A stretch of 64,000 nt of DNA. It comes from a virus (Duplodnaviria > Heunggongvirae > Uroviricota > Caudoviricetes). The stretch lies in the IMG/VR virus record IMGVR_UViG_3300017992_000017, positions 33,418 through 97,417 of that record. One strand, given 5' to 3'. The notes under the pieces were generated by a model. It was given only the letters and a program-made list of their open reading frames with translations, did not search any database and was not told where the DNA came from. Positions 20,441 through 61,650 of this stretch are shown piece after piece (position 1 is the stretch's first letter; every line of letters begins with the position of its first letter). Position numbers and translations under genes: made by a program.

Positions 20441-20655
20441 TGGTGATGACCCGAGAAGAAGCACGTGAGATTTTGGATCAGGTTGTGGCTAACCAGAAGA
20501 CGCTGACTGCCTGCTCCGGTCCCCACGAGTTCGAGCCGGTGAGTAAGGATAAGAAGTTCTCTCGTAGGTATCGTTGTAAGAAGTGTGGGGGTGAAGTTGA
20601 GAGCCTGCATAAGTACTGGTACGAGCAAGGACTGAAACACGGGAGTAGGAAGTGA
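20440..20655 (+). CDS. hypothetical zinc-ribbon protein
   Basis: CSGPHEF...CKKCGG. ATG overlaps the upstream stop. Confidence 0.4.
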   Translation: MVMTREEAREILDQVVANQKTLTACSGPHEFEPVSKDKKFSRRYRCKKCGGEVESLHKYWYEQGLKHGSRK

Positions 20656-21098
20656 AACACTCCGAGATGTGCAATCTGATGGGACAGGTAGTGACAGTAC
20701 GTCAGCAGCTCTGCGCCCGACGTCAGGGTATCCAGAAGAGATGGCTGTCCGAGAAAGTACCTGAGAGAGCTGGCTGGGTTGTCGGGTTCACGATACGGAT
20801 GGATGGACAAATTGAGCAGGGTGGTGACTTCTACAAGCCTCCGTACTTTCGGGAAACCAAGCGTACACCGTGTCTTCTGGTCGCATACTGGCCAACGGTA
20901 AAGCCTGTGCCGGTTCCTCTTGACGGATACGAGCTAGGTGGAACCCCAACGCCTCCGGACTTTGGCGGGTGGAGAGGAATCAATGAGGAAGCACTCCAGC
21001 GATACAAGCGAGAGCTCCGGGACGACATGATTCGCTGGCCTCGTGACAAGAAAGGCCGGTGGTTGAAACAGACTCCGGTACTTGGGAGCCAAACATGA
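20652..21098 (+). CDS. hypothetical protein
   Basis: 148-codon ORF. GTGA overlap. Confidence 0.45.
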   Translation: MKHSEMCNLMGQVVTVRQQLCARRQGIQKRWLSEKVPERAGWVVGFTIRMDGQIEQGGDFYKPPYFRETKRTPCLLVAYWPTVKPVPVPLDGYELGGTPTPPDFGGWRGINEEALQRYKRELRDDMIRWPRDKKGRWLKQTPVLGSQT

Positions 21099-21442
21099 TT
21101 GAGGTCGCGGTCGATTACACCGTTACGATCCTTGTCTTGGCGATTCTGGTTGTTGGCGCCGGGACGTGCGTGGCGGGTGGTCTCTGGCTGCTGGTGAAGT
21201 TCTTTGACTGGATCCTGGTCGGTGGCAATCCCCGTCTTCCTGGTCGAGGTGCTGTAGCTGTTTGTAGCCAGGGGATCGTTGGGATGATCGAGAACGACAA
21301 ACCTCAACGCGTCCATTACCCGGACGGAAACACGGGAAAAGCGTGGGTCGGACGTGCGATCTGGCCACCTGGTGTGTTTGGTGAGAAGTGGTCGAGTCGG
21401 AATCCGCGTGTGCTGTGTAGGATACCAAAGGAGATGCTGTAA
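21095..21442 (+). CDS. membrane protein
   Basis: ATGA overlap. N-terminal TM segment VTILVLAILVVGAGTCVAGGLWLLV. Confidence 0.45.
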   Translation: MIEVAVDYTVTILVLAILVVGAGTCVAGGLWLLVKFFDWILVGGNPRLPGRGAVAVCSQGIVGMIENDKPQRVHYPDGNTGKAWVGRAIWPPGVFGEKWSSRNPRVLCRIPKEML

Positions 21443-22363
21443 ATGAAAGCCAAGAACGTCAAGTCAGTTATCCGTAGCAAGATCAACCATTTCCTGAAGC
21501 ATGTTCGGGACGAGGATGTCCGGAAGGTTCTGGAGAAGAACATCGTTGTTACTGGTGGAGCGATCGCGTCGCTGCTTCTCGGCGAAGAGGTGAACGATTT
21601 CGACATATATCTCCGGTCCAAGGAAGCTGCGTTGACGGTGGCTCAGCACTATGCAGCCGAGTTCGCCAATAATTCGCCACCCAGGCACCGCAATTCAAGC
21701 CAGAAATGCAACGTCGTCGTGGAGGAGCTGCCGGATCGCATACGCATCAAGGTCCAGTCAGCGGGCATTGCATCAGAGCAAGGCGACGAAGACTACGAGT
21801 ACTTCGAGACAACCAACCCCGAAGACGCCGACGCGCACGAGTATGTCAGCAAGGTACTGTCTATCGCACAAGATGCTGAGCCGGATAACGAGAAACCGAA
21901 ATACAGGCCGGTCTTCCGCACGGCCAACGCAATCACACTGAGCGACAAGGTCCAGATCGTGACCCGGTTCTTTGGCGAACCGGACGAGATCCACGAGAAC
22001 TACGACTTTGTACACGTCACCAACTACTGGACCAGCTGGGATAACAAATTGGTGCTTCGGCCGGATGCGATAGAGGCTCTCCTTGCTCGCGAGCTCCGGT
22101 ACGTCGGCAGTAAGTACCCCCTCTGTTCCGTGATCCGCACACGTAAGTTCATCCAGCGGGGGTGGGCCGTTACAGCTGGTCAGTACCTCAAGATGATTAT
22201 GCAGCTCCAGGAATTAGACCTGCATGACATACGTGTGCTGGAGGAGCAACTGACCGGTGTGGATGCAGCGTATTTTGATGAAGTCCTGGCTGCTCTGAAG
22301 AAGAAAGACGCGAAAAGGGTTGACGCGGCGTACTTGGTTGAGCTGATCGACAGGATCTTTTGA
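21443..22363 (+). CDS. hypothetical protein with a possible Pol-beta-superfamily nucleotidyltransferase motif
   Basis: VVTGGAIASLLLGEEVNDFDIYL resembles the GG...D.D head of CCA-adding/poly(A) polymerase-type NTases. Motif-level evidence only. Confidence 0.3.
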   Translation: MKAKNVKSVIRSKINHFLKHVRDEDVRKVLEKNIVVTGGAIASLLLGEEVNDFDIYLRSKEAALTVAQHYAAEFANNSPPRHRNSSQKCNVVVEELPDRIRIKVQSAGIASEQGDEDYEYFETTNPEDADAHEYVSKVLSIAQDAEPDNEKPKYRPVFRTANAITLSDKVQIVTRFFGEPDEIHENYDFVHVTNYWTSWDNKLVLRPDAIEALLARELRYVGSKYPLCSVIRTRKFIQRGWAVTAGQYLKMIMQLQELDLHDIRVLEEQLTGVDAAYFDEVLAALKKKDAKRVDAAYLVELIDRIF

Positions 22364-22884
22364 TGCACGACACACTCTACAACCTCGAACTGGTGAGAGA
22401 AAAGCTAGACCTATGTGATCCTGACGTTTTTACCGAGGTGGTGCACAAGGAGACAAAGGCGCTGACCACGTATGCTCGTGATCTTGTCGGGGACGATCTT
22501 GCGCAGGACGTGGTACAAGAGGTTTGGTTGCATGCGTGGATGAAGCGACACGAGTACGATGGTAATCCCAAACTAATTCGTTGGTGGTTGTGTAGGTTTG
22601 CTTACTACTACGGACTGAAGATCCAGAGGGAGGAGGCACGACAGAGACACTACCATCTTTTCCCAGCCGAACCGGATCCGAAAGAACCTGTGGAAGATGT
22701 CGTGCTTTGTAGTCTCGTTGCGGAGTTTGTCCAGGGTCTTCCACCGAAACAGGAGCAAGCTGTACGTTTATGGTCCTTGGGATACACGTACAAAGAAATC
22801 GCTGGCCAGATGAACATCTCAGTCTCAGCTGCCACGTCGAATGTCAGTCTTGCACGTAAGAAGCTACACGAATTACTCAACTAA
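22363..22884 (+). CDS. sigma-70 family (ECF-like) sigma factor
   Basis: Region 2-like AQDVVQEVWLHAW. Region 4 HTH LPPKQEQAVRLWSLGYTYKEIAGQMNISVSAATSNVSLARKKL. Confidence 0.7.
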   Translation: MHDTLYNLELVREKLDLCDPDVFTEVVHKETKALTTYARDLVGDDLAQDVVQEVWLHAWMKRHEYDGNPKLIRWWLCRFAYYYGLKIQREEARQRHYHLFPAEPDPKEPVEDVVLCSLVAEFVQGLPPKQEQAVRLWSLGYTYKEIAGQMNISVSAATSNVSLARKKLHELLN

Positions 22885-22896
22885 GCAGGAGCCTAC

Positions 22897-23457
22897 ATGA
22901 CGTTCGGACGTGACGACCCCGTTGACCTGACATCCCATGAAGTGTTTGAAGCCGTGGTTCGGAAGTACAAGAACTGGATGTACCGGCTGGCTGGCCAGTA
23001 TGTGGAGCAACCTGCCGACCAGGATGACGTTGTGCAGTATGCGTGGTTGATCGTGTGGCAGGGACGGCACAAGTATACCGGTCCTGTGGGTAAGCTCCCG
23101 TTCTGGTTGAAGAAAGCAATACGCTACGCCGCACTGAATATCTACCGACAGCACCAAAGATTCCCGATGACAGGCTGTGATTTCTCGCGGGAGATCGATC
23201 CGTGTGCAGCAGAACCGGCAGTAGGTAGGGAGAAGGCCGAGCAAACGGAGGATCAGCACCAGCAAATCGACCGTGCTATGGCAACATTTCGGTTTCTCCC
23301 CAAACAACAACGGAGTGTCGTCAGGTTACGGATGGAAGGTCTACGGAATGAGGATATCGCCAAGAAGATGCGCCTCTCCAAGTCGTGCGTAGGCTCCCAT
23401 CTTCATCGTGCCAGGAAGAAGATCCGGCGTGAGATCGAGGAATCTCCAACTCTCTAA
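22897..23457 (+). CDS. sigma-70 family (ECF-like) sigma factor, second copy
   Basis: DQDDVVQYAWLIVWQ. Region 4 LPKQQRSVVRLRMEGLRNEDIAKKMRLSKSCVGSHLHRARKKI. Confidence 0.7.
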   Translation: MTFGRDDPVDLTSHEVFEAVVRKYKNWMYRLAGQYVEQPADQDDVVQYAWLIVWQGRHKYTGPVGKLPFWLKKAIRYAALNIYRQHQRFPMTGCDFSREIDPCAAEPAVGREKAEQTEDQHQQIDRAMATFRFLPKQQRSVVRLRMEGLRNEDIAKKMRLSKSCVGSHLHRARKKIRREIEESPTL

Positions 23458-23485
23458 AACTCTAAGACTACAGAATCGTGTGAAT

Positions 23486-24463
23486 ATGGCTGACAAGAAC
23501 ACTTCCTACACAAGCGCTGACGTCCTACCGATCAAGGTAGTCCTCGATACCCAGACCGTGGACCATATCCGTCGTTACCGCAGGATTCCACCGATCCACG
23601 CTCAGGTCATCCCGACGAATCGCTGCAACAGAAACTGTCCAATGTGCAGCTGTAGCGAACGGACCAAGAACCACGAGATGGATCTGTTCGACGTCGAGAC
23701 CATAGCCAAGGATCTCCGTCGACTGGGGTGTCGAGCCGTGACGTTGACCGGGGGTGGTGAGCCGTTAGTGCATCCGCAGATCGTCGACATCATCCGGCTC
23801 TTTCACGTCCTGGATATCGAGATCGGGATGACCACCAACGGGATGCTGTTGCACGAGCTCCCCGAGGAGGTAGTCGAGCTGCTGACCTGGTGTCGGATCT
23901 CGAACGACGACTCCAGACACATGTCCCCTCTGTACATGGCCAGTCTCGACAAGGTGTTTGTGGGAAGCTCCGTAGGCTGGGGTTTTTCGCACGTGGTCTC
24001 CAAGACCCCTAACTTCGAGGAGATTGCCAGGGTTGTACGGTACGCCAACGAGTGGAAGATCACCCACGTTCGCCTCATCGCTGACCTGTTCGAGCCAAAG
24101 GCCGTCGATCTTACGAAGGTGCGGCAGTATCTCTATGAGGAAGGGATCGACGACTCCCGGGTCATCTACCAGAACCGCCAACAACCAGTCCGGGGAGGTC
24201 CTTGCTACATCGGGTACTTGAAACCCCTGATTTCTGCCGACTGCAAGGTATATGCGTGCTGTGGGGTGCAGTACGCGTTGGATCCCCCTACCCGTGACCT
24301 ACCTCCGGAACTCTGTATCGGGGACGCGTTGGACCTGGGTGCGCTCTATGACAGCAGCGACGTACAGCTCAACGGGGAGATATGCAAGACCTGTTACTAC
24401 GACAATTACAACAACCTTCTCGGGTCGCTCCTGAAAGACACCACGCACGAGGAGTTTGTATGA
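23486..24463 (+). CDS. radical SAM enzyme
   Basis: IPTNRCNRNCPMCS (CxxxCxxC), GGGEPLV glycine motif, extra C-terminal Cys cluster (CKVYACCG, CKTC). Confidence 0.8.
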   Translation: MADKNTSYTSADVLPIKVVLDTQTVDHIRRYRRIPPIHAQVIPTNRCNRNCPMCSCSERTKNHEMDLFDVETIAKDLRRLGCRAVTLTGGGEPLVHPQIVDIIRLFHVLDIEIGMTTNGMLLHELPEEVVELLTWCRISNDDSRHMSPLYMASLDKVFVGSSVGWGFSHVVSKTPNFEEIARVVRYANEWKITHVRLIADLFEPKAVDLTKVRQYLYEEGIDDSRVIYQNRQQPVRGGPCYIGYLKPLISADCKVYACCGVQYALDPPTRDLPPELCIGDALDLGALYDSSDVQLNGEICKTCYYDNYNNLLGSLLKDTTHEEFV

Positions 24464-25143
24464 CCTTCGCTATCATCTCCGGTGCTCGATCTGGCACGCA
24501 CATGCTCCGACTGGCGTTGTCGCAGCATCCGGACATCCACGTCTCTCACGAGTTGTTGAATCCTGATCGTTTAGGACACCGGTTTGGCGAGGAGACAGCG
24601 GAGACGATCATCCGGGAGTGGCAGCAAGAGCACTACCGGGAGGTCAAACAGCTAGGGTCTTTGTTGCATCGGGATCTTTACAACCGATCGGAGGAGATAC
24701 CTGGCGACCCCTGGAGAGATGTTCGTCGGAGTCACGCCAAGTTTATCAGCCTCTACCGGTACAACCTCCTCCGCAAGGTTCTCTCCGGGAGGACTGCGTT
24801 TGTCCACAAGAACTGGCAGTGCACGTCTCCCAGGACCAAGGAGTTGCCACCTATCACTCTGGATCCGGACCATCTTGAATCACATTGTCGCAAGGAGTGG
24901 AGGTCTTTCGGTCTGGTGGACGCGAGACTGCCACGTCACTTCGTCATCTCTTATGAAGATCTGGTGAGTGACTGGACGTATCACACGATGGCCATGCAGG
25001 AGTATTTGGGGGTGACGCCGGTTCAGCTCCACCCCCGAACTCACAAACAAGAAACACGCAGCCTCCGGGAAGCCATTGCGAACTACGACGAGATAGCTGA
25101 CCGGGTTTGTGAAATGGGTTGCGAAGACTGGTTAGAGGAGTAG
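24460..25143 (+). CDS. sulfotransferase (Stf0-like)
   Basis: ATGA overlap. FAIISGARSGTHML (5'-PSB-like loop) and ISLYRYNLLRKVLS (3'-PB-like R...S). Confidence 0.5.
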   Translation: MTFAIISGARSGTHMLRLALSQHPDIHVSHELLNPDRLGHRFGEETAETIIREWQQEHYREVKQLGSLLHRDLYNRSEEIPGDPWRDVRRSHAKFISLYRYNLLRKVLSGRTAFVHKNWQCTSPRTKELPPITLDPDHLESHCRKEWRSFGLVDARLPRHFVISYEDLVSDWTYHTMAMQEYLGVTPVQLHPRTHKQETRSLREAIANYDEIADRVCEMGCEDWLEE

Positions 25144-25145
25144 TC

Positions 25146-25892
25146 ATGCCAACTGTTAGCGTAATCTTGACGTCCCACAACCACGGACCGTTTCTGCGTC
25201 AAGCCATCGAGAGCGTGCTGGCTCAGACGTACACGGACTTCGAGCTATTGATTCTGGATGATGCGTCTACGGATGGGTCAGCAGACATTGCACGGGAGTA
25301 TGTCGGATCCAACGCCTTTCTCCAGGACTACCAAGAAAAGGCATCCAGTCTCGGGGTTGTCCTGAACCGTAGCATTCGTCTGGCTCGTGGAGACTACTGG
25401 GTCTGGGCACCTTCAGATGACGTGCTCAAACCGGATCTCCTAGAGAAGAAGATGGCCACGGCACAGGAGCATCCCGGCGCCGTCCTCTACTCAGACTGGG
25501 AGTACATCAATGAGCGGGGGGACGTGACCGGGACCAAACGTCTACCGGAATGGACCGCCGAGGATATCGCAAGGATGGTGTGGGAGAAGTCCATGCTCGG
25601 GTTCACCGGCATCTGGATACCCATGTCCGTCTTCGATGAGGTGGGGAACTGGCCGACGCACATGCTCTTCTCCGAGGACTTCTCCTGGTTCGTTCGAGCT
25701 ACGATCCACGGAATACCTTTCATCAACTGTCCTGAGGTCCTCTTCCAGAAACGGCTCAACCCTCTGCAGACAGCCAGTAAGGTCGGGACGAAACGCATCC
25801 TTGAGCTGGTACCCGCAATCCATAGTGAGCTCCGTTGGTACCAACATCTCTACCAACAACACCATCCTGACTACGAGGTGCCGAGTCAATGA
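25146..25892 (+). CDS. GT2 family glycosyltransferase
   Basis: VSVILTSHNHGPFLRQAIESVLAQTYTDFELLILDDASTDGS. Confidence 0.8.
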   Translation: MPTVSVILTSHNHGPFLRQAIESVLAQTYTDFELLILDDASTDGSADIAREYVGSNAFLQDYQEKASSLGVVLNRSIRLARGDYWVWAPSDDVLKPDLLEKKMATAQEHPGAVLYSDWEYINERGDVTGTKRLPEWTAEDIARMVWEKSMLGFTGIWIPMSVFDEVGNWPTHMLFSEDFSWFVRATIHGIPFINCPEVLFQKRLNPLQTASKVGTKRILELVPAIHSELRWYQHLYQQHHPDYEVPSQ

Positions 25893-26728
25893 GGGTTGTC
25901 TTCTTCTGGGGAACGTCTCCGTTGTCGTGGATGAGGTACGCCACGATCGCCAGCTTCCGGAAACTCAATCTGGACTGGGAGATCGAGCTGTATCTCTACC
26001 ACCACCAGCACGTCAAGAAGTACTGGACCGACTCCCCGGTGCAGGATTTTTCCGAGTACCGAGGAGCCGACTACTTTCCTTTGCTCACGGACCTTGGTGT
26101 TCGGGTCATTCCGTGGGAGTTGCCGGAGGAGCTGCAGGACAAGAAGCACGTCATCGGTCCTTCCCACGCCAGTAACTTCTTCAAGTGGAGCTGGCTGTCC
26201 GAGAACGTGGGTGTCTACTGCGACCTGGACATCCTCTGGACGTCCCCGCTTACGGACTGGCTTGACTGGGTGGCCACGTACGATGCTGCTCTTGCTTACA
26301 CGCCGGAGTACTTCTCGATCGGCCTTCTCTGGTCGGGACAGCAGCCGAACCCCGTCTACAAGGATATCCTGGCCGAGAGTTACCGCACCTTCACGCACAC
26401 CAAGTACCAGAGTGCCGGGGTCGTGGCACTCTATCGGTTACTGCAGAAGTTCGACCCAGCGTACCGTGAGCACCCGTGGGATAAGGATCTGCTCGCGAGG
26501 TACGACAACGCATACCTCTTCGACATGGACTGGGTCTATCCTTGGCGATTCAACCAGATGGAGGAGGTTTTCAACAAGAAGCACGAGGTCATCCCACCGA
26601 TGTGCAAGGGGATCCACTGGTACGCCGGGTCTCCAATCGCACAGAAGTACAACAACCTGATCACCGAGGACACGTTGGATCAGTACGACAATACGTTCAC
26701 CCATTTCGCGAGACGGGTCCTTGGTTGA
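25889..26728 (+). CDS. DXD glycosyltransferase (GT32 / Gly_transf_sug-like)
   Basis: FKWSWLSENVGVYCDLDILW. Paralog of the next gene. Confidence 0.45.
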   Translation: MRVVFFWGTSPLSWMRYATIASFRKLNLDWEIELYLYHHQHVKKYWTDSPVQDFSEYRGADYFPLLTDLGVRVIPWELPEELQDKKHVIGPSHASNFFKWSWLSENVGVYCDLDILWTSPLTDWLDWVATYDAALAYTPEYFSIGLLWSGQQPNPVYKDILAESYRTFTHTKYQSAGVVALYRLLQKFDPAYREHPWDKDLLARYDNAYLFDMDWVYPWRFNQMEEVFNKKHEVIPPMCKGIHWYAGSPIAQKYNNLITEDTLDQYDNTFTHFARRVLG

Positions 26729-27536
26729 TCCTAAGAAACATATCGTCTTCTTCTGGTCCGGTCGTTCGCTGTCTTGGCTGCGATACCTGACGATCTACTC
26801 GTTTCGTGTCCTGAACCCGGAGTGGAAGATCTCCCTGTACCTGTGTCATACGAGTCTGGTGACGACTTGGCTCGATCATAACCGTCTCGACTTCAGTGAG
26901 TATGAAGGTGAGGACTATCTTCCCAGGCTCCAGTTTCTAGGGGTCGATGTCCAGCAGTGGGAGTTGCCTCCGGAGATCTGTAGTGCCACACCTCCCCACG
27001 CGTGCGATCTATTCGAGTGGCAGTGGCTGTCGGAGAACGTCGGGTACTACGCCGACATGGACATCCTGTGGGTCCGACCGATGAAGGTCCCGGACTCTGA
27101 TGCAGCGATTGTGTACGGCAAGCAATTCAGTATCGGCTTGGTGTGGTCGGGTGTGGCTCCGAATCCTATGTTCCGGGACATCTACCAGGAGAGCCTCCGT
27201 ACGTACACACCCGCCGTCTACCAGAGTGCCGGGGTCGTTCCCATCTACCAGCTCTTAGGACATTCCGGTCCCGAGGTTGACCTGTCCATACCCTGGTTCG
27301 AGCGATTACGAGAGAAGTATCCCACGGTCTCCAAGCTGCCGTTCCCCATGATTCATCCGTGGGATCATGAGCAGCTGGAAGCCATGTACGACGAGCTACA
27401 TACCGAGGTACCAACAGACTGTGTCGGAATTCATTGGTACGGTGCTGCTCCAAGGTCCCAGACGTTCAACCAGGAATACGGACCGAGGACGCAGCAGGAT
27501 AATACGCTAAGTCATTTTGCGAGACGGGTGGCATGA
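26721..27536 (+). CDS. DXD glycosyltransferase (GT32-like), tandem paralog
   Basis: FEWQWLSENVGYYADMDILW and colinear similarity to 25889..26728 (VFFW, SIGL.WSG..PNP, YQSAGVV, GIHWY, HFARRV). Apparent TTG start. Confidence 0.45.
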   Translation: MVDPKKHIVFFWSGRSLSWLRYLTIYSFRVLNPEWKISLYLCHTSLVTTWLDHNRLDFSEYEGEDYLPRLQFLGVDVQQWELPPEICSATPPHACDLFEWQWLSENVGYYADMDILWVRPMKVPDSDAAIVYGKQFSIGLVWSGVAPNPMFRDIYQESLRTYTPAVYQSAGVVPIYQLLGHSGPEVDLSIPWFERLREKYPTVSKLPFPMIHPWDHEQLEAMYDELHTEVPTDCVGIHWYGAAPRSQTFNQEYGPRTQQDNTLSHFARRVA

Positions 27537-28303
27537 AACCCCTGGTGTCCGTGGTGGTGGCGACACGCAACAAGGACAAGATCCTGGCCAAGGTGCTGGC
27601 TAGTATCTACCGTCAGTCGTGTGCCTATCCCTTGGAGGTCGTGGTCGTTGATGACGGATCCACGGACAACACCCGGGAGACCTGCCTCGCGTACCCGGAC
27701 TTGCGATACATCAGGTTGGAGGGTGGGGAGTACCGAAACTCCTGCTTTGCTCGAAACTGTGGGTACTGGGCAGCGAACGGCATGGCGTTGGTACTGCAGT
27801 CGGATGATGTGGTGCATGTCTCCGAGCGTGCCGTCGAGAAGCTGGTCGATCGGTTGGGACCTGGCGAGTTTACGATTGCCACGGTCTACAACTACGACCC
27901 CGAGACCAACGCACCGGTCCTGATGTACACGGGGACGGGATGGAAGCGACCGTTCTTCTTCCTGGGAGCGATACGGACCGAGGACATCTATGCAGTCGGT
28001 GGGAATGAGGAGGAGCTATTGGATGTGGGGGTTGGGTTCGATGATACGTGGTTGGCCGACTGTCTCACGCTAGGACAAGGACTAACCCCGGTATTTATGC
28101 ACACCGTTCTTGGATATCACCAGAATCACCGTCCCCTGATCCCCGGCATCATGAGGGAGAAACACGCCGACGCGAAACTCTGGTACGAGGCAAAGGTGCG
28201 TACGGGAAGGTTCGTGACCTCTACCGGCGCGTGGACAGAACGAATGGATCCTGACGAATGGGTACGGCATTATCACGTGTGTCAAGATCTATCGAGGTAC
28301 TAA
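27533..28303 (+). CDS. GT2 family glycosyltransferase
   Basis: VSVVVATRNKDKILAKVLASIYRQSCAYPLEVVVVDDGSTDNT. Confidence 0.75.
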   Translation: MKPLVSVVVATRNKDKILAKVLASIYRQSCAYPLEVVVVDDGSTDNTRETCLAYPDLRYIRLEGGEYRNSCFARNCGYWAANGMALVLQSDDVVHVSERAVEKLVDRLGPGEFTIATVYNYDPETNAPVLMYTGTGWKRPFFFLGAIRTEDIYAVGGNEEELLDVGVGFDDTWLADCLTLGQGLTPVFMHTVLGYHQNHRPLIPGIMREKHADAKLWYEAKVRTGRFVTSTGAWTERMDPDEWVRHYHVCQDLSRY

Positions 28304-28407
28304 TGTCCGAAGACGTCTACTACCTGACTCCGAAAGCCATCATGGTCGGGGTGCTCAGTGAATATATCCCGCATGAAGAACTTGTAAACGCAGAGGACGA
28401 GGAATGA
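28303..28407 (+). CDS. small ORF (34 aa), translationally coupled on both sides
   Basis: TAATG overlap with the GT2 stop and ATGA overlap with the neuB start. Translation MSEDVYYLTPKAIMVGVLSEYIPHEELVNAEDEE. Not on the ORF track (under 60 aa). Confidence 0.3.
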   Translation: MSEDVYYLTPKAIMVGVLSEYIPHEELVNAEDEE

Positions 28408-29279
28408 GCACCACGATCGTAGCTGAGATCGGGATCAATCACAACGGCTGTCTCGCATTCGCCAAAGAGATGATCGACGCAGCGTATGAGGCTGGTGCCG
28501 ACGTGGTGAAATTCCAGAAGCGTACCCTGCCTGCCGCCGTTCCCATCCACCAGCGACACGCACTCAAAGAGACGCCTTGGGGACAGATGACGTACCTCGA
28601 CTACCGAAACAAGCTGGAGTTCGGGTTCGAGGAGTACTGCACCCTCGATCGGTGGTGTGCCAGGTACCCGATCTCCTGGACTGCGTCGGTGTGGGATGCG
28701 GAGGCTGCCAAGTTCATCGCTCAGTTTGACGTGCCGTACCTCAAGATCCCCTCAGCTGCCATTACGGACGCTCGACTCCTAGATGTCGTACGAGCCACGG
28801 GTAAGCCGGTCGTGATGAGCACCGGCATGTCCACGCTGGAGGAGGTAGACGCTGCGATCAACGTGCTCATGGGTAGCCGGTACTGTGACGGAGACTCCTG
28901 CCGTCGTACGCGTCAGCTACCACCGGCTCAGCTCACGCTCCTGCATTGTGTGAGCACCTATCCGACAGCCATCCCAGACATCAACCTCCGGGTCATGGAC
29001 ACGCTACGAGCTCACACGGGACTCCCAGTAGGCTATTCAGGACACGAGGTAGGGATGGCTGTGAGTATTGCCGCTGTTGCTCGTGGTGCCTGCATGATCG
29101 AGAGACACTTCACCACGTCGCAGACCATGTGGGGTACGGATCAGCGAGCATCTATGGAGCCGGGGGATTTTGCTGCACTGGTCAACGGTATCCGATCGGT
29201 GGAGAGAGCACTCGGTGATGGGGTGAAGATTGTCTGCACCCGAGAACTTCCTATTCGACAGAAGCTACGGGGTGTGTGA
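28404..29279 (+). CDS. neuB: N-acetylneuraminate (nonulosonate) synthase, NeuB family
   Basis: IVAEIGINHNGCLAFAKEMIDAAYEAGADVVKFQ and downstream GYSGHE. At 291 aa it seems to lack a full C-terminal SAF domain. Confidence 0.85.
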   Translation: MSTTIVAEIGINHNGCLAFAKEMIDAAYEAGADVVKFQKRTLPAAVPIHQRHALKETPWGQMTYLDYRNKLEFGFEEYCTLDRWCARYPISWTASVWDAEAAKFIAQFDVPYLKIPSAAITDARLLDVVRATGKPVVMSTGMSTLEEVDAAINVLMGSRYCDGDSCRRTRQLPPAQLTLLHCVSTYPTAIPDINLRVMDTLRAHTGLPVGYSGHEVGMAVSIAAVARGACMIERHFTTSQTMWGTDQRASMEPGDFAALVNGIRSVERALGDGVKIVCTRELPIRQKLRGV

Positions 29280-29566
29280 TGACTACCGTTATGTCCAATA
29301 CGCTGTTCGACATCGTCTCCGAGATCCACGAGAGGCTACAGCAACAGATCGACGAGGGGGTTGTCAGATGGGAAGTGCTCGATACCGGAGGAGCAGCACC
29401 AGTACCGTGTGGGGTCGTCTTTCGGTACGAGTTTGTGTGGAACAATCACAAATACATATGGAAACATGCTTTCTCAGCCATCGAGCTCCTGTGTTGTCCG
29501 GATCCTATCTGGGTGGCTGAGTGGTTGGCCGATAGCTGGTTGCATGATGCTAAGGCTGTGAAATGA
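29276..29566 (+). CDS. hypothetical protein
   Basis: 96-codon ORF with 4-nt overlaps on both sides. Confidence 0.45.
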   Translation: MMTTVMSNTLFDIVSEIHERLQQQIDEGVVRWEVLDTGGAAPVPCGVVFRYEFVWNNHKYIWKHAFSAIELLCCPDPIWVAEWLADSWLHDAKAVK

Positions 29567-30423
29567 AGATTGTCCACTACAAGAAGACCCCCCTGGCTTA
29601 CGCTCCGGACTGGTTGTCGATGGCAATCAACAAGTACTCGGAGCATGAGTCTTCGGTCGTCACGTATCCGAAGCAGCTCCCCAAGCCAGCCAAGGATACG
29701 GTCGTCCATTTTCACAACCGGTTCGTCCCCTACGCCGGTCCCTGTCTGATCCAATACCATTCGGAGCCAGACGAACCGAACCTGATGCATCCGAAAGACC
29801 ACCCCACCGCTCCAGAACGTCGGTTGGTGGTGGCTCATTATCACCCCACGCTCCCCGAATACAAGGACATGCACCCGGTCCGTAACGTGGTGGACTTCAG
29901 ACGTCCTCAGTTTGCATACACCCCGGTTCGGAAGTTCAAGGTCGGTTACTCTCCCTCAGTCACGCGTCGGATCAGCAGGTGGTACGACAAGGGATATGAG
30001 AAGACAGTACAGATCCTCCAGCGTGTTGCCAAAGAAGTCCCGGAGATGGAGGTCGACATTATTGCCGGGGTTTGTCTGGATGAGTGTCTCCGGCGTAAAC
30101 GGGACTGCTCCGTGCTGATCGATGAGTGCGTGACCGGGAGCTATCATCGGAGTGGACTGGAAGGACTGGCGTTGGGGAAGGTGACGATAGCCGGTATGGA
30201 TGCTGCCGTGGTTGATGTGTTTCAGAACGTGTCGGGATCTGTTCTGATTCCGTTTACGATCTGTGGCATCGACTACCTGTGCAACAAGCTGATCCGTCTG
30301 TCCAAGGATATTGATGCGTTGAGAGAACGAGGACTGCACAACCGGCAGTGGTTTGAGAATTTCTGGGCGCCTGAACAGATCGTGGCCGAGTACGTGGAGC
30401 ACTACAAGGAGGTGCTGGCATGA
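29563..30423 (+). CDS. hypothetical protein, possible GT-B-fold glycosyltransferase
   Basis: The C-terminal half (VGYSPS...ILQRVAKEVPEMEVDIIAG...GSYHRSGLEGLALGKVTIAG) resembles the GT1/GT4 C-domain. Weak. Confidence 0.3.
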   Translation: MKIVHYKKTPLAYAPDWLSMAINKYSEHESSVVTYPKQLPKPAKDTVVHFHNRFVPYAGPCLIQYHSEPDEPNLMHPKDHPTAPERRLVVAHYHPTLPEYKDMHPVRNVVDFRRPQFAYTPVRKFKVGYSPSVTRRISRWYDKGYEKTVQILQRVAKEVPEMEVDIIAGVCLDECLRRKRDCSVLIDECVTGSYHRSGLEGLALGKVTIAGMDAAVVDVFQNVSGSVLIPFTICGIDYLCNKLIRLSKDIDALRERGLHNRQWFENFWAPEQIVAEYVEHYKEVLA

Positions 30424-48848: not shown

Positions 48849-49160
48849 CTAGCCCTCCAGGTTGTACTGAATGGAAACGTGGTACCAGATCTCGCTGAAG
48901 TCGTCCCCGAAAGGATCGATCGCTTTGGGTACGGTTGGCCACTCCTCCAGACCGGCATCTTCCAGGAGTTGCTCTTCCAGGTCCTCCGTGTCCACACCCT
49001 CCTCGGCGATCTGTTCAAGGCAGTCCTCGATCGCGTCGGCCGGGTGATTGCCGATACCTGTTCTCACGTGGTCGAACAGGGTGCCGCTGGTCCCACACCC
49101 CTGGAAGTATTGGGAATGCTCTATCCCGTGGTCGATTACTTCAAACTCGGTCACTCGCAT
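48849..49160 (-). CDS. hypothetical acidic protein
   Basis: ATG 49160 (MRVTEFEVIDHG...). The upstream part of the track ORF is translation of the 28-bp repeat. Confidence 0.45.
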   Translation of the reverse strand: MRVTEFEVIDHGIEHSQYFQGCGTSGTLFDHVRTGIGNHPADAIEDCLEQIAEEGVDTEDLEEQLLEDAGLEEWPTVPKAIDPFGDDFSEIWYHVSIQYNLEG

Positions 49161-49294
49161 TCTGACGTGTACCCGTTCCCGTTCCCATTCTGACATGCAC
49201 CTGTTCCCGTTCCCATTCTGACATGCACCTGTTCCCGTTCCCATTCTGACATGCACCTGTTCCCGTTCCCATTCTGACATGCACCTGTTCCCGT
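49159..49294. repeat. 28-bp tandem repeat, ~5 copies: ATTCTGAC(A/G)TG(C/T)ACC(T/C)GTTCCCGTTCCC
   Basis: Head-to-tail copies starting at 49159, 49187, 49215, 49243 and 49271 (last one partial). Noncoding, since the period is not a multiple of 3. Confidence 0.85.
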
Positions 49295-49388
49295 TGGTTT
49301 CGTGTCCTGTACTCATTTTCTCATCCCTGGTATTGTACGGAGTCTAGTTTGAGAGTCAACCCTGTTTGTCGGAGATTCTCGAAATTTC

Positions 49389-52475: not shown

Positions 52476-52583
52476 TGGGACGGCAAGGGACTCGAACCCT
52501 GTACCCGGTTGCAGTCGTGGAGATGAGCACTTTCCCCGGCGACTGCTTGTGCTCGCCGAATAGTCTCCCGTTAGACCCGTCCC
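52476..52583 (-). ncRNA. tRNA-like RNA, unit 2 (108 nt)
   Basis: Minus strand: perfect 7-bp acceptor GGGACGG/CCGTCCC, discriminator A, T-loop GGGTTCGAGTCCC. Internal helices GGAGA/TCTCC and GAGCAC/GTGCTC. No canonical D arm or anticodon loop. Confidence 0.5.
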
Positions 52584-52595
52584 GTGATGTAGGCG

Positions 52596-52676
52596 TGGGT
52601 AGGTGAGGCTGCGAACCTCAACTGCCATGGTCGTCCGGTACCTGGACTGACTGGCGTGTCCCGTCGAACCCTACCC
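52596..52676 (-). ncRNA. tRNA-like RNA, unit 1 (81 nt)
   Basis: Minus strand: perfect 7-bp acceptor GGGTAGG/CCTACCC, T arm TGAGG-TTCGCAG-CCTCA, discriminator A. The 5' GTTCGACGGGA resembles the tmRNA D-loop analogue. The central hairpin GTCC-AGGTACC-GGAC lacks U33 and R37. Confidence 0.55.
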
Positions 52677-52681
52677 GTGAT

Positions 52682-52924: not shown

Positions 52925-53233
52925 AGTACCCAGTCTGACATGCACCCGTTCCCATACCTGTACCCGTTCCCTCATGCACCCACGGGCCTGTTCTCTCCTG
53001 CACCCACGCGAGGACCTGCACCCATGCACCCGTTCCCATACTTTCACTACGTAGGAAAACAAGGCATCCCAGTGAAATACCTGTTCCCGTTCCCATTCTG
53101 ACGTGTACCCGTTCCCGTTCCCGTTCCCGTTCCCATTCTGACGTGTACCCGTTCCCGTTCCCGTTCCCATTCTGACGTGTACCCGTTCCCGTTCCCGTTC
53201 CCATTCTGACGTGTACCCGTTCCCGTTTCCTGT
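52925..53233. repeat. (GTTCCC)n-ATTCTGACGTGTACC array, n = 2,4,3,3, with degenerate copies
   Basis: Clean units span 53081-53233. Decayed copies (TCTGACATGCACCCGTTCCC etc.) span 52925-53040. Same unit family as 49159..49294. Confidence 0.85.
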
Positions 53234-53235
53234 GG

Positions 53236-53349
53236 CCAGACCGAGCTTCCAGAACCAGACCGAGCTTCCAGAACCAGACCGAGCTTCCAGAACCAGACCG
53301 AGCTTCCAGAACCAGACCGAGCTTCCAGAACCAGACCGAGCTTCCAGAA
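53236..53349. repeat. 19-bp tandem repeat x6: CCAGACCGAGCTTCCAGAA
   Basis: Six identical head-to-tail copies plus a degenerate seventh (53350-53370). Confidence 0.9.
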
Positions 53350-53393
53350 CCAGACAGAATCCTCCCAGAATCGATTCTCCCCCAGCGCATAGA

Positions 53394-58178: not shown

Positions 58179-58364
58179 ATGCACTTCAATATCTTCTTCA
58201 CCCTCAAAGGACCTGGCGGGAAGATCGATGCGCCGAACAACAGCAACCCGGTTGAATGCAAGGACCTATACACCCTACTACACGATCTGGCCGAGCAACT
58301 ACCAAATAACTGGCTGGTAGAAACGATCGGCGTACGCATCGAAAAGACGGGGGGGACATGGTAG
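58179..58364 (+). CDS. hypothetical small protein
   Basis: 61-codon ORF. Confidence 0.4.
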   Translation: MHFNIFFTLKGPGGKIDAPNNSNPVECKDLYTLLHDLAEQLPNNWLVETIGVRIEKTGGTW

Positions 58365-58915
58365 ACACACAAGCACAGGGAGTCGCACCCGCAATCTGCC
58401 TCATCAACCCGAAGACGGAAATCAACGTCGGGATGGTCGTACGTCTGGCATCCTGTTACGGAATCTCGCAGGTGTGGTGGACCGGGCACAGAGTCAACTT
58501 GGATCGCAGCGGAAAGCGTCGACTCCCACGAGAAGAGAGACTCCGGGGGTATCAGGACGTGACCATGATCCAACATGATCGTCCGTTCGATCACTTTCCT
58601 GGTGCAGTACCGGTGGCTGTTGAGGTACGCGAGAACGCCGAGAACCTCCTTGCCTTCGAGCACCCGGAGAACGCCTTGTACGTGTTTGGTCCGGAAGACG
58701 GGGGACTACGAGCGGTGGACGTGCGTCATTGCCATCGCTTCCTGATCATCCCCACGGACCACTGCCTCAACCTCGCAACTGCTGTGGCTACCGTGCTGTG
58801 GGATCGGACCGTGAAGGCGCATCTGAACGGCGACGTATCCCGTGTTGGAAGGTCCCCGGCAACGTGCGAGAACCGAGGATTTGTAGACAGTCCGATCGTA
58901 GAGGAGGTACCGTGA
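58358..58915 (+). CDS. SPOUT-class (SpoU/TrmH-like) RNA 2'-O-methyltransferase
   Basis: LINPKTEINVGMVVRLASCYG, ALYVFGPEDGGL, FLIIPTDHCLNLATAVATVLWD (the three SpoU motifs). Confidence 0.7.
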   Translation: MVDTQAQGVAPAICLINPKTEINVGMVVRLASCYGISQVWWTGHRVNLDRSGKRRLPREERLRGYQDVTMIQHDRPFDHFPGAVPVAVEVRENAENLLAFEHPENALYVFGPEDGGLRAVDVRHCHRFLIIPTDHCLNLATAVATVLWDRTVKAHLNGDVSRVGRSPATCENRGFVDSPIVEEVP

Positions 58916-59100
58916 AAAGACTACTCGACTACCTGGCTATCGTGATTGTTGCTGCGATCTATCTGGCAGTGGCGACGTTGGCATTTCTCGCTTTCACAGG
59001 GTTGATTATTCACGAGCCGGAGACAGCTGCTGGATGCACGGCGATTACTGCTGTGGTCGTACTGTTTATCTGGTCAATGCACAGACTGGAGAACAGGTGA
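58912..59100 (+). CDS. small membrane protein
   Basis: GTG in a GTGA overlap after a GAGGAGG SD. Two hydrophobic spans. Confidence 0.4.
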   Translation: MKRLLDYLAIVIVAAIYLAVATLAFLAFTGLIIHEPETAAGCTAITAVVVLFIWSMHRLENR

Positions 59101-59420
59101 TGCAAGAACGTACTGTAGATGTCGATTGTGTCCGGTTCAGTTGCTTCTCCGGGGCGCCAAAGCTCGTGCAGGACTACCTCATCCTGCGAGAGAACGAGAC
59201 CCTGGACGCGTGGGTTCTCGAGTTCAAGCGTGGGGTGACCGGATACGAGTCTCTCATCGTGACCGGACCAGGCGCCGCAGATCTGGAGAGACTGTGCGAG
59301 GTCGGATGGTGGGCCTGTGCTGGTACGACGGGTTGCTGGGATAGTCTCTTTGTACATCCACTCCAGCTGAAACGGGTCTTTGAGGATCTAGGACTTCTCG
59401 AAAAGGAGACGACGCAGTGA
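59100..59420 (+). CDS. hypothetical protein
   Basis: ATG overlaps the upstream stop (TGATG). Confidence 0.45.
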   Translation: MQERTVDVDCVRFSCFSGAPKLVQDYLILRENETLDAWVLEFKRGVTGYESLIVTGPGAADLERLCEVGWWACAGTTGCWDSLFVHPLQLKRVFEDLGLLEKETTQ

Positions 59421-60175
59421 AATTCGATGACCTAGACGCCAAGATGCGGGTCTTCGAGACTGTGGCCGATACCTGCGTTCTGCCTGAGCTCTACATGGTT
59501 GCTCGACTGGATGGACGTAGCTTCACCCGGCTGACGAAAGAGACCCACCCATTTGACACGCCGTTTGACAGCCGGTTTCGGGACATGATGGTCGCAACCA
59601 CGGAATCGCTGATGACCTGCGGCTTCCGGGTGATCTACGGGTATACCGAGAGCGACGAAATCTCCTTGCTGTTTGCACGTAACGAGAACACGTTTGGCCG
59701 GAAACTGCGTAAGTACAACTCAGTACTGGCAGGAGAAGCGAGTGCCAAATTCTCATTACTGTGTGGGAGCGTCGGGGCATTTGACTGTCGTGTCTCCCAG
59801 CTGCCAACCCCAGATCTGGTGGTTGACTACTTTCGCTGGCGTAGTGCGGACGCCACCAGGAACGCCTTGAACTCCTGGTGTTACTGGATGCTAAGAAGAA
59901 AGACCGGCAAGAGTAAACGCCAAGCCACGTCACAGCTCCTTGGACTCTCGATAAGCGAAAAGAACGAGCTGCTCTTCCAGTACGAGATCAACTTCAACGA
60001 TCTCCCTGCGTGGCAAAAACGTGGGGTCGGCGTGTACTGGGAACACTACGACAAGCCGTCCGTGAACCCGGTTACAGGCGAGTGTGTTGTGGCCGGTCGT
60101 CGTCGCATTCGGAGAGAGTATGAGCTGCCAATGAAGGACGAGTACAGCGAGTTCATTCGTGCTATTCTCGGTTAG
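59417..60175 (+). CDS. Thg1-like protein (tRNA-His guanylyltransferase / 3'-5' polymerase family)
   Basis: MKFDDLDAKMRVFE...YMVARLDGRSFTRLTKE...PFDSRF...GYTESDEISLLF...FGRKLRKYNSVLAGEASAKF matches the Thg1 N-terminal catalytic core (RiDGr.F, SDEiS, GR..Ki.S). Confidence 0.85.
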   Translation: MKFDDLDAKMRVFETVADTCVLPELYMVARLDGRSFTRLTKETHPFDTPFDSRFRDMMVATTESLMTCGFRVIYGYTESDEISLLFARNENTFGRKLRKYNSVLAGEASAKFSLLCGSVGAFDCRVSQLPTPDLVVDYFRWRSADATRNALNSWCYWMLRRKTGKSKRQATSQLLGLSISEKNELLFQYEINFNDLPAWQKRGVGVYWEHYDKPSVNPVTGECVVAGRRRIRREYELPMKDEYSEFIRAILG

Positions 60176-60183
60176 GAGAAACC

Positions 60184-60441
60184 ATGGCTGACATCGTAGA
60201 CCTTTGCCGTACTGTAGCTGACGGCGCCTCCTCTGCCTGGGGTGACGCGTCGGAGCAGTTGAAACCGATCCTCACGGCTGCCAGCAATACCTTGTTGGAT
60301 GCTGCCAAGGAGATTGAATGTCTCCGATCTGCATACCACGGGTCCTGCTACGCGTGTGAGATCCGAAAGACCTGTGACTGCGCGTGGGACATCTACAACC
60401 TGAACACGGTCGCCGGGATTGACTGCCTGGCGAGTAAGTAA
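60184..60441 (+). CDS. hypothetical protein
   Basis: 85-codon ORF. Confidence 0.45.
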   Translation: MADIVDLCRTVADGASSAWGDASEQLKPILTAASNTLLDAAKEIECLRSAYHGSCYACEIRKTCDCAWDIYNLNTVAGIDCLASK

Positions 60442-60629
60442 TGCCTAGACTTCATGTAAGCTGCAACAAGTTCGCGTGCCGGGTAGTCGTCGATGAAGCT
60501 ACCCAGACCATCACCGACGCAGAACCGGCCATGCGCAGATTCGTTGGACAGCCGATCCGGAACCTCTACGCCTGGTTCGCGAAGTTTGGCAACCTCCGGA
60601 TTGTTGATCTGGATGAGTATAGTCTGTGA
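60441..60629 (+). CDS. hypothetical protein
   Basis: 62-codon ORF. TAATG overlap. Confidence 0.45.
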   Translation: MPRLHVSCNKFACRVVVDEATQTITDAEPAMRRFVGQPIRNLYAWFAKFGNLRIVDLDEYSL

Positions 60630-60645: not shown

Positions 60646-60674
60646 TTGCCAGACACCTCGTTTTCGGGTATAAT
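60646..60674 (+). promoter_or_regulatory. near-consensus sigma70 promoter upstream of the integrase
   Basis: TTGCCA (60646-60651), 17-nt spacer, TATAAT (60669-60674). AAGGAGA SD and ATG at 60706. Confidence 0.55.
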
Positions 60675-60705
60675 ATGGGTAGTTCAAGATCCAAGGAGAA
60701 CCCCC

Positions 60706-61650
60706 ATGTACGACCTGATCCCAGCAGCTTCCAATACCCTCGTCCAGCACGACTACAACCGGCTTGTGGCGCAGTGGCTGTCCGGACGCAAGGATACCAC
60801 GCTCAACACGTACAAGTCGGCTCTCCGGGACTTTGCGGCCTGGTTGGACGTCCGATCCATGGCCGAAGTCGCTGAAAGTCTCCTCACGCTGGATGCTGGC
60901 CAGGCGAACGCGAAGATCCTGGACTACAAGAACGCTCTGATCGCTAGAGAGCTGGCACCTGGGACGGTCAACCTGCGTCTTGCTGCGATCCGGTCCTTGG
61001 TGTCTCTGGCTGCCATGCTCGGGATTGTGTCTTGGACGGTCCGGATCAAGGGACTGAAACAACGAGTCTACCGGGACACGCGAGGTCCTGGTGCTGACGG
61101 ATACCGATCGATCGTCTCCAACCTTGACACGACCACGAAACCCGGCAAACGGGACGCGGCGATCGTACGGCTCCTCTACGTGCTGGGTCTCCGTCGTGGT
61201 GAGGTCGTCTCCCTGGATCTGGAGGATGTGGACTTCTCAGCTGGACGCGTCGAGATCTTGGGGAAGGGACGTCTGCAGAAGGAGTGGGTGACCATCCCCC
61301 CGGAGACGCTCGAGACGCTCCGTGAGTGGGTGGATGCTCGGGGGTGGCACTGCGGTCCTCTCTTCGTCTCCTTGGCCAGAGGGAGCTACGGGAAGCGGCT
61401 CACGGGTCGTAGCGTGGCCAGTGTGGTACAGAAGGCTGGTGTCGCGGCTGAGCTCGATCGACCGGTGCGTCCCCATGGTCTCCGGCATGCTGCTATCACC
61501 GAGCTCCGGGACCAGGGCGCCAGCGATCGGGACGTGATCCGGTTCTCTCGGCACCGCTCTCCCGACGTCCTGCAGTACTATGATGACAACCGAGACGATA
61601 TCGCTGGGAGACTCGCTACCAAATTGGAGATACTCGATGAAAGCCGCTGA
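60706..61650 (+). CDS. int: tyrosine recombinase / phage integrase (XerC/D-like)
   Basis: N-terminal SAM-like core-binding region. Catalytic residues in LGLRRGE (R), HGLRHAAIT (HxxR), RHRS...LQYY (H, Y). Confidence 0.85.
   Translation: MYDLIPAASNTLVQHDYNRLVAQWLSGRKDTTLNTYKSALRDFAAWLDVRSMAEVAESLLTLDAGQANAKILDYKNALIARELAPGTVNLRLAAIRSLVSLAAMLGIVSWTVRIKGLKQRVYRDTRGPGADGYRSIVSNLDTTTKPGKRDAAIVRLLYVLGLRRGEVVSLDLEDVDFSAGRVEILGKGRLQKEWVTIPPETLETLREWVDARGWHCGPLFVSLARGSYGKRLTGRSVASVVQKAGVAAELDRPVRPHGLRHAAITELRDQGASDRDVIRFSRHRSPDVLQYYDDNRDDIAGRLATKLEILDESR

Follow-up and report, generated by a model that had tools for sequence, protein, structure and literature searches.

Thg1-like proteins (TLPs) of bacteria and archaea, templated 3'-5' nucleotidyltransferases, repair tRNA 5'-ends in vitro, and tRNA 5'-end repair is the standard role inferred for TLPs of the bacterial type; the HINNLYN motif is what separates Thg1 from them. 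We describe here a TLP gene in a 64,000-nt stretch of the large viral record IMGVR_UViG_3300017992_000017 (referred to below as the window, whose positions are used throughout), together with the gene of a SpoU-class SPOUT RNA methyltransferase that lies close upstream. The TLP gene was captured by the phage as a single open reading frame (ORF) from a bacterial kinase-TLP(-ligase) operon and held since under strong purifying selection, while its proximity to the SPOUT gene does not represent a conserved system. The closest described precedents are the Thg1-polynucleotide kinase(-ligase) gene neighborhoods from which an RNA-repair role was first inferred, in a study that also raised the possibility that phage Thg1 serves RNA repair against host defenses (Anantharaman, Iyer and Aravind, 2010; PMC2904730). 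Thg1 is also counted among the RNA-repair enzymes of jumbo phages (Iyer et al.; PMC7824862). Phage-encoded TLPs and their proposed anti-defense repair role are thus already published and annotated (PHROG 4717); phage TLP genes number 152 GenBank records, and in IMG/VR they occur on at least 570 stretches. We found no test in the literature of the 2010 proposal that phage Thg1 acts in host conflict.

A first-pass annotation of the window had assigned the product of this gene to the Thg1/TLP family, and profile searches confirm it, with both Pfam models scoring above their gathering thresholds (Thg1, PF04446, E 4.7e-30 and 104.6 bits against a cutoff of 29.2; Thg1C, PF14413, E 3.7e-17 and 63.1 bits against 26.3) and PHROG 4717, "tRNA-His guanylyltransferase", matched at E 3e-39. 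Among solved structures the Methanosarcina TLP (5axk, E 3e-27) is matched best, followed by human THG1 (3otb, E 7e-26). The catalytic carboxylates, whose absence the first-pass annotation had set as refuting its proposal, are present: upon alignment to the human enzyme, D32 corresponds to D29, and the S79-D80-E81 run to S75-D76-E77. All four residues are the same in every one of 20 aligned close relatives, and they remain invariant alongside 11 diverse relatives, viral TLPs of merely 30-49% identity. Where the human protein has HINNLYN the phage protein has TRNALNS; the eukaryotic motif is therefore absent, which identifies a TLP as opposed to a Thg1 of the eukaryotic type. Judged by these residues, the product is a TLP that has kept its full two-metal active site. 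The phage protein carries the same residue as its relatives at every position invariant across the 20-sequence alignment, with no phage-specific change there, and its C-terminus is slightly shorter than in its nearest relatives.

In its Thg1 plus Thg1C architecture, its D, SDE and RLDGR motifs and its lack of HINNLYN, the protein resembles the TLPs of Methanosarcina acetivorans (5axk) and Bacillus thuringiensis (4kgk, E 1.7e-17); it differs from such bacterial and archaeal enzymes in being phage-encoded and in lacking the upstream AAA_33 kinase typical of its own clade. With the TLPs of phage isolates (Bacillus phages BSP38, Bcp1, TsarBomba and G, Pseudomonas phage 201phi2-1, and jumbo phages) it shares the family and the proposed role in RNA repair or tRNA-His maturation, but its identity to them is only ~30%, and the present copy is a separate capture from a bacterial repair operon.

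The relatives that are close to the phage protein are bacterial. Thousands of bacterial TLPs show 70-80% identity to it, and the best matches with a name come from Planctomycetota (Symmachiella, Gimesia, Pirellulaceae). In Symmachiella dynata and on a 722 kb planctomycete contig, the TLP comes second in a cassette of four genes whose stops and starts overlap, in which an AAA_33 kinase (146 aa) is followed by the TLP (259 aa), an RNA ligase (PF09414, 246 aa) and an HD plus AAA_33 protein (~370 aa); a third contig, of 4.4 kb, carries the kinase-TLP pair and then ends. The S. dynata cassette adjoins Pnkp/Hen1 and two RlaP genes. Among 80 representative bacterial loci, counting for each neighbor only those with room for it, an AAA_33 polynucleotide kinase lies directly upstream of the TLP in 62/75, while the RNA ligase follows downstream in 16/75 and the HD/kinase gene in 15/68. 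The clade to which these TLPs belong is 66-73% identical across Planctomycetota, Chloroflexota, Bacteroidota, Acidobacteriota, Cyanobacteria, Bacillota and Myxococcota, and is clearly mobile. The kinase-TLP cassette as such, in the bacterial loci surveyed (L120-L199), likewise shows 66-73% protein identity over at least seven phyla, which would imply extensive horizontal transfer of the RNA-repair operon.

In a neighbor-joining tree the phage TLP nests, on a somewhat longer branch, within a bacterial subclade made up of P0002, P0004, P0006 and P0009. The contexts of two of these were looked up, and both are of the operon type, with the kinase gene immediately before the TLP; for P0006 the RNA ligase and HD/kinase genes follow downstream, and the contig of P0004 ends just past the TLP. 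The remaining viral TLPs, L102-L105 and others more distant, fall elsewhere in the tree, so the gene has evidently been captured several times by phages. To the operon TLPs that were located, the phage protein is 73-78% identical; what sets the phage locus apart from the kinase-TLP-RNA ligase-HD/kinase operon is that it has the TLP ORF alone, with similarity stopping at the ORF borders. Blastn aligns the locus with the bacterial operon (72% and 69% similarity) over 59418-60153 only, that is, over the TLP ORF. When the kinase, ligase and HD/kinase proteins of the presumed host group were compared by tblastn with the whole window nothing was found, the kinases reaching no better than E 0.2, and neither tblastn nor blastn detected remnants of these genes around the phage TLP. 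Nor is any kinase, RNA ligase (PF09414) or HD protein present in the window or annotated in the 10 kb beyond either end of it, ~84 kb inspected in all out of a genome of ~105 kb. The gene is, by all these signs, a single-ORF capture from a bacterial RNA-repair operon.

Between the phage and host TLP genes the nonsynonymous divergence (dN) is 0.14-0.15, the synonymous divergence (dS) is saturated, and dN/dS is ~0.06 or less, in the same range as between host genes. A ratio this low speaks for an old, selectively maintained acquisition and not a decaying passenger. We rejected the idea of a non-functional passenger on several grounds: the ORF is intact, the alignment-invariant residues are kept, a ribosome-binding site is present, and dN/dS is ~0.06. 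One further kinase-TLP pair was met on a contig classed as viral (IMGVR_UViG_3300003323_001438; L001, identical to L105), where it sits between a HipA toxin gene and a gene for a protein with the domain of colicin D, the tRNA-Arg anticodon nuclease, so that a pair for tRNA repair stands next to toxins aimed at tRNA and translation; this contig may be bacterial rather than viral.

The first-pass annotation had combined the TLP and the SPOUT methyltransferase into a possible tRNA repair or editing module and had pointed to co-occurrence in related phages as the place to look for it. The survey that we made, covering 10 kb on either side of each gene and ~240 loci in total, does not sustain the module. 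A TLP lies within 10 kb of just one of the 80 viral SPOUT loci (L022-L101), namely L030, where 6.4 kb, including PARG-like and Metallophos genes, separate the two. Conversely, the SPOUT family was absent from the 10 kb flanks of all 18 close viral TLPs, was found 8-9 kb away at two of 80 more diverse viral TLP loci (L209 and L217), and occurred within 10 kb of none of the 80 bacterial TLPs. In no surveyed locus are the two genes directly adjacent. The closest phage SPOUT relatives (63% identical; L007-L009, from the same sample series) have no TLP within 10 kb, and neighbor clustering at the 80 viral SPOUT genes gave no universal partner, the one apparent cluster proving to be an artefact of ORFs antisense to SPOUT. 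The genes that intervene between the two in the window are ORFans that occur elsewhere without either enzyme, and no other gene of the block turns up again in the vicinity of TLP or SPOUT genes. TLP and SPOUT genes are each common in large phages, the TLP in at least 570 and the SPOUT family in at least 155 IMG/VR stretches, so that occasional co-residence is to be expected by chance. The TLP-SPOUT pairing is not a conserved module. We therefore lean towards regarding the two as accessory RNA enzymes, individually functional but independent of each other, the TLP serving to repair or maintain tRNA 5'-ends; on balance, the two genes seem to have been acquired separately, into an accessory block adjoining the integrase gene of a ~105 kb phage.

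The SPOUT gene was likewise correctly recognized at the outset as SpoU/TrmH-like. Its product matches SpoU_methylase (PF00588) above threshold (E 9e-14, 52.2 bits against a cutoff of 29.7), and all three motifs of the class are conserved (N23-x5-R29, VFGPEDG and IPxxHCLNLA), the S-adenosylmethionine (SAM)-binding motifs among the intact elements; N23, R29, E113 and N138 are invariant in the family alignment. A single-sequence phmmer search of the PDB gave no match; with a profile of 20 homologs, TrmJ (4e-5), TrmL (9e-5) and TrmH (0.02) were matched with motifs 1, 2 and 3 aligned. An AlphaFold model (pLDDT 83, pTM 0.81) gave 123 Foldseek matches in the PDB at E<=0.001, the best 50 of which are all SpoU-class proteins, and it matches TARBP1, TrmH, AviRb, TrmL, TrmJ, RlmB and the thiostrepton/nosiheptide-resistance enzymes about equally well (probability 1.0, TM ~0.6, 17-22% identity). 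As all significant structural neighbors whose function has been assigned are RNA 2'-O-ribose methyltransferases, the chemistry can fairly be extended to the phage protein, though the substrate cannot. We take the enzyme to be a SAM-dependent 2'-O-ribose methyltransferase that would act on tRNA or, less likely, on rRNA.

To TrmL (Cm34/Um34), TrmJ (Cm32/Um32) and TrmH (Gm18) the phage protein is alike in being a minimal single-domain SPOUT protein with motifs 1-3 and a predicted alpha/beta SPOUT fold that matches theirs at Foldseek probability 1.0; it differs from them in its 17-22% identity and in a family-specific basic insert, RLPREERxxGY. An orthologous relationship to TrmL, TrmJ or TrmH is not supported, the NCBIfam scores lying far below cutoff (TrmJ/YjtD, TIGR00050, 37.5 bits against 167; NF041077, 22.2 against 350). 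The insert (residues 55-65) and a C-terminal TPGEFEGRG are the signature of a family whose members are ~60% identical to one another. In Gemmataceae and Pyrinomonadaceae genomes the family is found as a gene on its own, in contexts that vary; its viral representatives reside mostly on contigs of 50-545 kb, and just two GenBank phage records contain it. The family is not mentioned in the jumbo-phage review cited above (PMC7824862). The RLPREERxxGY subfamily looks like an abundant, uncharacterized phage RNA methyltransferase. A side observation concerns a calcineurin-type phosphoesterase (Metallophos) encoded at 39984-40568 (-), 18 kb from the SPOUT gene and on the opposite strand in the window, whose homologs lie within ~2 kb of SPOUT genes in unrelated viral contigs (L084, where the two are directly adjacent, L031, L082, L086-L091 and L100); a recurrent SPOUT-phosphoesterase association may exist.

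A 2'-O-methyl group blocks transesterifying RNases, a chemistry exploited by Hen1, and protection of RNA from a tRNase is therefore one plausible role for the SPOUT enzyme, which by this analogy we hold loosely. The analogy could be taken further, to a "repair and immunize" pair after the manner of Pnkp/Hen1, in which the TLP would rebuild the 5'-end and the SPOUT enzyme would then 2'-O-methylate the target nucleotide against re-cutting by the host nuclease. The two genes are 502 bp apart in one translationally coupled run, tRNA is a plausible substrate of both enzymes, three unrelated large viral contigs (those of L030, L209 and L217) hold both genes within 10 kb, and the S. dynata TLP operon does adjoin a Pnkp/Hen1 pair. 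Yet linkage at 1/80 and 2/80 viral loci and 0/80 bacterial loci, never as direct neighbors, is not what such a pair would lead one to expect; the closest phage SPOUT relative does without a nearby TLP, SPOUT has no universal neighbor across the 80 viral loci, and the genes between are unrelated ORFans. The likeness to Pnkp/Hen1 is also conceptual only, consisting in an RNA end-repair enzyme encoded beside a 2'-O-methyltransferase: the phage locus has neither kinase/phosphatase nor ligase, its methyltransferase has the SPOUT fold as opposed to the Rossmann fold of Hen1, and the pairing is unconserved. We consider such a pair distinctly unlikely. More doubtful still is a version restricted to this lineage, in which a captured TLP has become wired to SPOUT as a minimal two-step tRNA rescue, the end being rebuilt and re-cleavage then blocked by a methyl group. 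If it were true, the two steps would overcome a host tRNase that cuts in the acceptor stem or the anticodon, with no need of kinase or ligase. More broadly, and no less doubtfully, the RLPREERxxGY subfamily could be a general phage tRNA-immunizing enzyme.

For the preferred reading, that of two independent accessory enzymes, what we infer of their substrates, timing and biological role is as follows. The TLP would activate a 5'-monophosphate with ATP, or take a 5'-triphosphate directly, and would then add nucleoside triphosphates with the acceptor stem's 3' strand as template, so as to rebuild missing tRNA 5' nucleotides or to restore a templated G-1 of tRNA-His. The tRNA pool would in this way stay usable when a nuclease or toxin trims tRNA 5'-ends. 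With no kinase or ligase in the inspected sequence, the TLP could not start from 5'-OH ends; it would either handle 5'-phosphorylated ends only or rely on end-healing enzymes of the host. The SPOUT enzyme, for its part, would 2'-O-methylate tRNA or, less likely, rRNA. Of the repair or editing proposal made in the first-pass annotation, then, there stand a real TLP, a real SpoU-class enzyme and a phage-like replicon; the module and the link to tRNA-like RNAs (discussed below) do not, and the usual partner kinase (62/75) and the ligase are absent.

Several points weigh against our reading. The partner kinase usual in the TLP's clade is missing here. Most metal-independent ribotoxins leave 5'-OH ends, and if this holds for most tRNA-targeting toxins, a lone TLP would be of limited use. 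Because the host seems to own a near-identical TLP operon already, the benefit to the phage is doubtful. The ~21 kb of the genome that lie beyond the inspected ~84 kb could hold a kinase or ligase. Finally, the tight, translationally coupled proximity of TLP and SPOUT is unique among the ~240 loci, which leaves room for a functional pairing specific to this lineage.

What the locus adds to the literature is a documented single-gene capture by a phage from a bacterial kinase-TLP(-ligase) operon, maintained by strong purifying selection; the recognition of the neighboring SpoU subfamily as abundant, and unstudied, in huge phages; and the negative result that TLP-SPOUT adjacency is not a conserved system. 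It overturns nothing in current understanding. Should the TLP repair tRNA 5'-ends during infection, it would provide a case of in vivo 3'-5' polymerization in virus-host conflict.

The surroundings of the two genes are set out in Table 1. Both ORFs lie where the first-pass annotation had placed them, and independent callers made identical gene calls on identical metagenome contigs, giving the order SPOUT (185 aa), orf62, orf106, TLP (252 aa), orf85, orf62b, integrase. The two small genes said to separate SPOUT from TLP, with overlapping stops and starts, are indeed there, and the junctions can be read directly from the sequence as ATGGTAG (orf61/SPOUT), GTGA (SPOUT/orf62), TGATG (orf62/orf106) and GTGA (orf106/TLP), each with a GGAG-type ribosome-binding site upstream. 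Equally tight packing extends throughout the + strand block from ~56.9 to 60.6 kb, however, and overlap of the four genes is therefore no evidence in itself of joint function.

Table 1. Features of the TLP-SPOUT block and tRNA-related elements, in window coordinates.
Feature	Position	Strand	Remarks
SpoU-class SPOUT RNA methyltransferase	58358..58915	+	185 aa; uncharacterized subfamily, signature RLPREERxxGY, common in large uncultured phages; PF00588
orf62, small hydrophobic ORF	58912..59100	+	62 aa; GTG start overlaps SPOUT stop (GTGA); independent gene callers
orf106, ORFan directly upstream of TLP	59100..59420	+	106 aa; ATG overlaps preceding stop (TGATG)
Thg1-like protein (TLP), templated 3'-5' nucleotidyltransferase	59417..60175	+	252 aa; GTG start overlaps preceding stop (GTGA)
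Two small ORFs closing co-directional block (orf85, orf62b)	60184..60629	+	85 and 62 aa
Tyrosine integrase	60646..61650	+	PF00589 E 4e-22; PHROG 1 integrase
Two paralogous tRNA-like elements	52476-52590 and 52594-52680	-	7-bp acceptor stem, T-arm-like hairpin, discriminator A
Odd tRNA	11767-11835	+	Rfam 41 bits; ARAGORN "tRNA-???"; overlaps 3' end of ORF 11493-11837

The small genes of the block say little of its function. The product of orf62 shows two hydrophobic stretches, seen by eye in the translation, and has no match in Pfam, PHROG or NCBIfam. That of orf106 has no family match in profile searches or PADLOC, no P-loop as judged from its sequence, and just three weak homologs among 5.8 billion proteins, one of which follows a RecA-like gene on a different phage-like contig whose 4 kb contain no called TLP or SPOUT gene. 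No significant family match (Pfam, PHROG, PADLOC) was found for orf85 or orf62b, and orf85 has only 16 homologs, all small, among 1.84 billion cluster representatives. The homolog searches with orf106 and orf85 thus describe ORFan-like genes with no tie to a TLP or SPOUT gene. PADLOC found no defense-system match in the block.

The position of the block beside the integrase gene invites a different account of its timing, namely that the two genes are lysogenic-conversion cargo, expressed from the prophage and shielding the tRNAs of the lysogen from other phages or from tRNases that competitors deploy as toxins (colicin D-like or contact-dependent), and not serving counter-defense in the lytic cycle. 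The direct adjacency of the accessory block to the integrase gene speaks for it, as does the kinase-TLP pair of L001 beside HipA and a colicin D-domain protein. However, a promoter scan found no separate promoter for the block, which is co-directional with ~10 other small phage ORFs typical of early genes, and we regard lysogenic conversion as unlikely. As to the integrase gene itself, a sigma-70-like promoter match (TTGCCA-17-TATAAT, 11/12) lies at 60646-60674 (+), at its annotated start, and other gene callers place that start ~60 nt later (314 aa). A near-consensus promoter match in this position suggests that the integrase gene may be transcribed separately from the SPOUT-TLP block, with translation starting at the later codon.

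The TLP might alternatively serve the maturation or editing of the phage's own tRNA or tRNA-like RNAs, by 5' editing as in protist mitochondria or by G-1 addition to tRNA-His. Candidate substrates do exist, as the phage encodes a tRNA-Thr, an odd tRNA with a G1-G72 mismatch atop its acceptor stem, and two tRNA-like elements at 52476-52680 (-). It was to the last of these that the first-pass annotation had linked the TLP, and its description of them, with 5' GGG opposite CCC and A as discriminator, is correct. Their acceptor stems are fully paired (GGGACGG/CCGUCCC-A and GGGUAGG/CCUACCC-A), however, so that there is nothing for a templated 3'-5' polymerase to add unless the RNAs are damaged first, and on this point the elements give no specific backing to a role of the TLP in their maturation. 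They also go undetected by Rfam tRNA models even at E<=1 (in a relaxed search of 47.5-64 kb), and default ARAGORN reports nothing at 52.4-52.7 kb, where only low-threshold "intron" models fit. The two elements have a common 5' leader, ACAUCACGGG, and T-arm-like hairpins, GGUUCGAGUCC and GGUUCGCAGCC; the second forms a cloverleaf fold (z-score -3.1).

The odd tRNA, whose mismatch is the one acceptor-stem irregularity noticed, has a 6-nt anticodon loop and overlaps the end of an ORF, for which reasons it may be non-functional. The tRNA-like element at ~52.58 kb has an identical 5' acceptor strand, GGGACGG, and no relatives of the odd tRNA came up when IMG/VR viral sequences were scanned for exact matches to its 3' half. 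The window yielded no tRNA-His, and the TLP itself is an ordinary member of the repair-operon clade, unchanged at the alignment-invariant positions. Taken with the paired 5'-ends, these points make service to the phage's own tRNAs very improbable, and tRNA repair or maintenance by an independent accessory TLP is the reading that we retain. Flanking the region of the tRNA-like elements, in two places 3.8 kb apart, are tandem repeat arrays (49141-49330, 53049-53262 and 53217-53368, with units of 28 nt, 34 nt and 19 nt) that have in common the core GTTCCCATTCTGAC(A/G)TG(C/T)ACC(C/T)GTTCCCGTTCC; the ORFs called there yield repetitive peptides.

The genome to which the window belongs, a 105,746-bp contig carrying the exact window proteins, is a large phage-like replicon. 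Within the window are encoded a family A DNA polymerase, a sliding-clamp-like processivity factor, SSB, a UvsX/RecA-like recombinase and SbcCD-like nucleases, together with two DNA methyltransferases, Vsr, a dCMP deaminase, two sigma factors, a sugar cluster (NeuB, cytidylyltransferase, sialyltransferase-like protein and GT2) and several PHROG families of unknown function. The 10 kb beyond one end add helicases, DnaB, a 5'-3' exonuclease and ThyX, and those beyond the other trypsin-like, MazG, CsrA, peptide deformylase and RGP genes; capsid, portal and terminase genes were not seen in the ~84 kb inspected. A tyrosine integrase in a large phage-like genome indicates that the phage is probably temperate. 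By blastn, the region has no match among GenBank phages.

The host is probably a planctomycete. Two observations make up the case for Planctomycetota, the top matches of the TLP and the match of a phage sigma factor to PF07638 (Sigma70_ECF). An assignment from the TLP by itself would be tentative, since its clade is mobile and 66-73% identical across at least seven phyla.

Some further features of the window deserve mention. An ORF at 37213-38097 (-) matches PHROG transposase families (E 8e-11), and an insertion-sequence-like element may thus reside inside the phage genome. A 306-aa protein encoded at 21443-22363 (+) matches PHROG 4400 (unknown function, E 2.5e-66) and has no Pfam match; by eye, it contains a nucleotidyltransferase-like motif, GGAIASLLLGEEVNDFDIY, and a 62%-identical fragment lies near the SPOUT gene of viral contig L043. 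The ORFs at 41129-41842 and 42859-43902 (-) consist mostly of short peptide repeats, (M/W)(H/R)(D/S)SSQVGE/K in ~11 copies and AESCSIQN/Y-type units in ~25, and their weak Cornifin-like Pfam match probably reflects the repeats only. The sugar-modification cluster is large, extending over 15863-30423 (+). Besides NeuB (E 1e-76) and a cytidylyltransferase whose C-terminal domain is HAD-like, it includes several GT2 glycosyltransferases and a GT29 sialyltransferase-like protein, along with a radical SAM protein, a cupin and the dCMP deaminase; its content suggests that the phage makes a sialic-acid-like sugar or carries out glycosylation.

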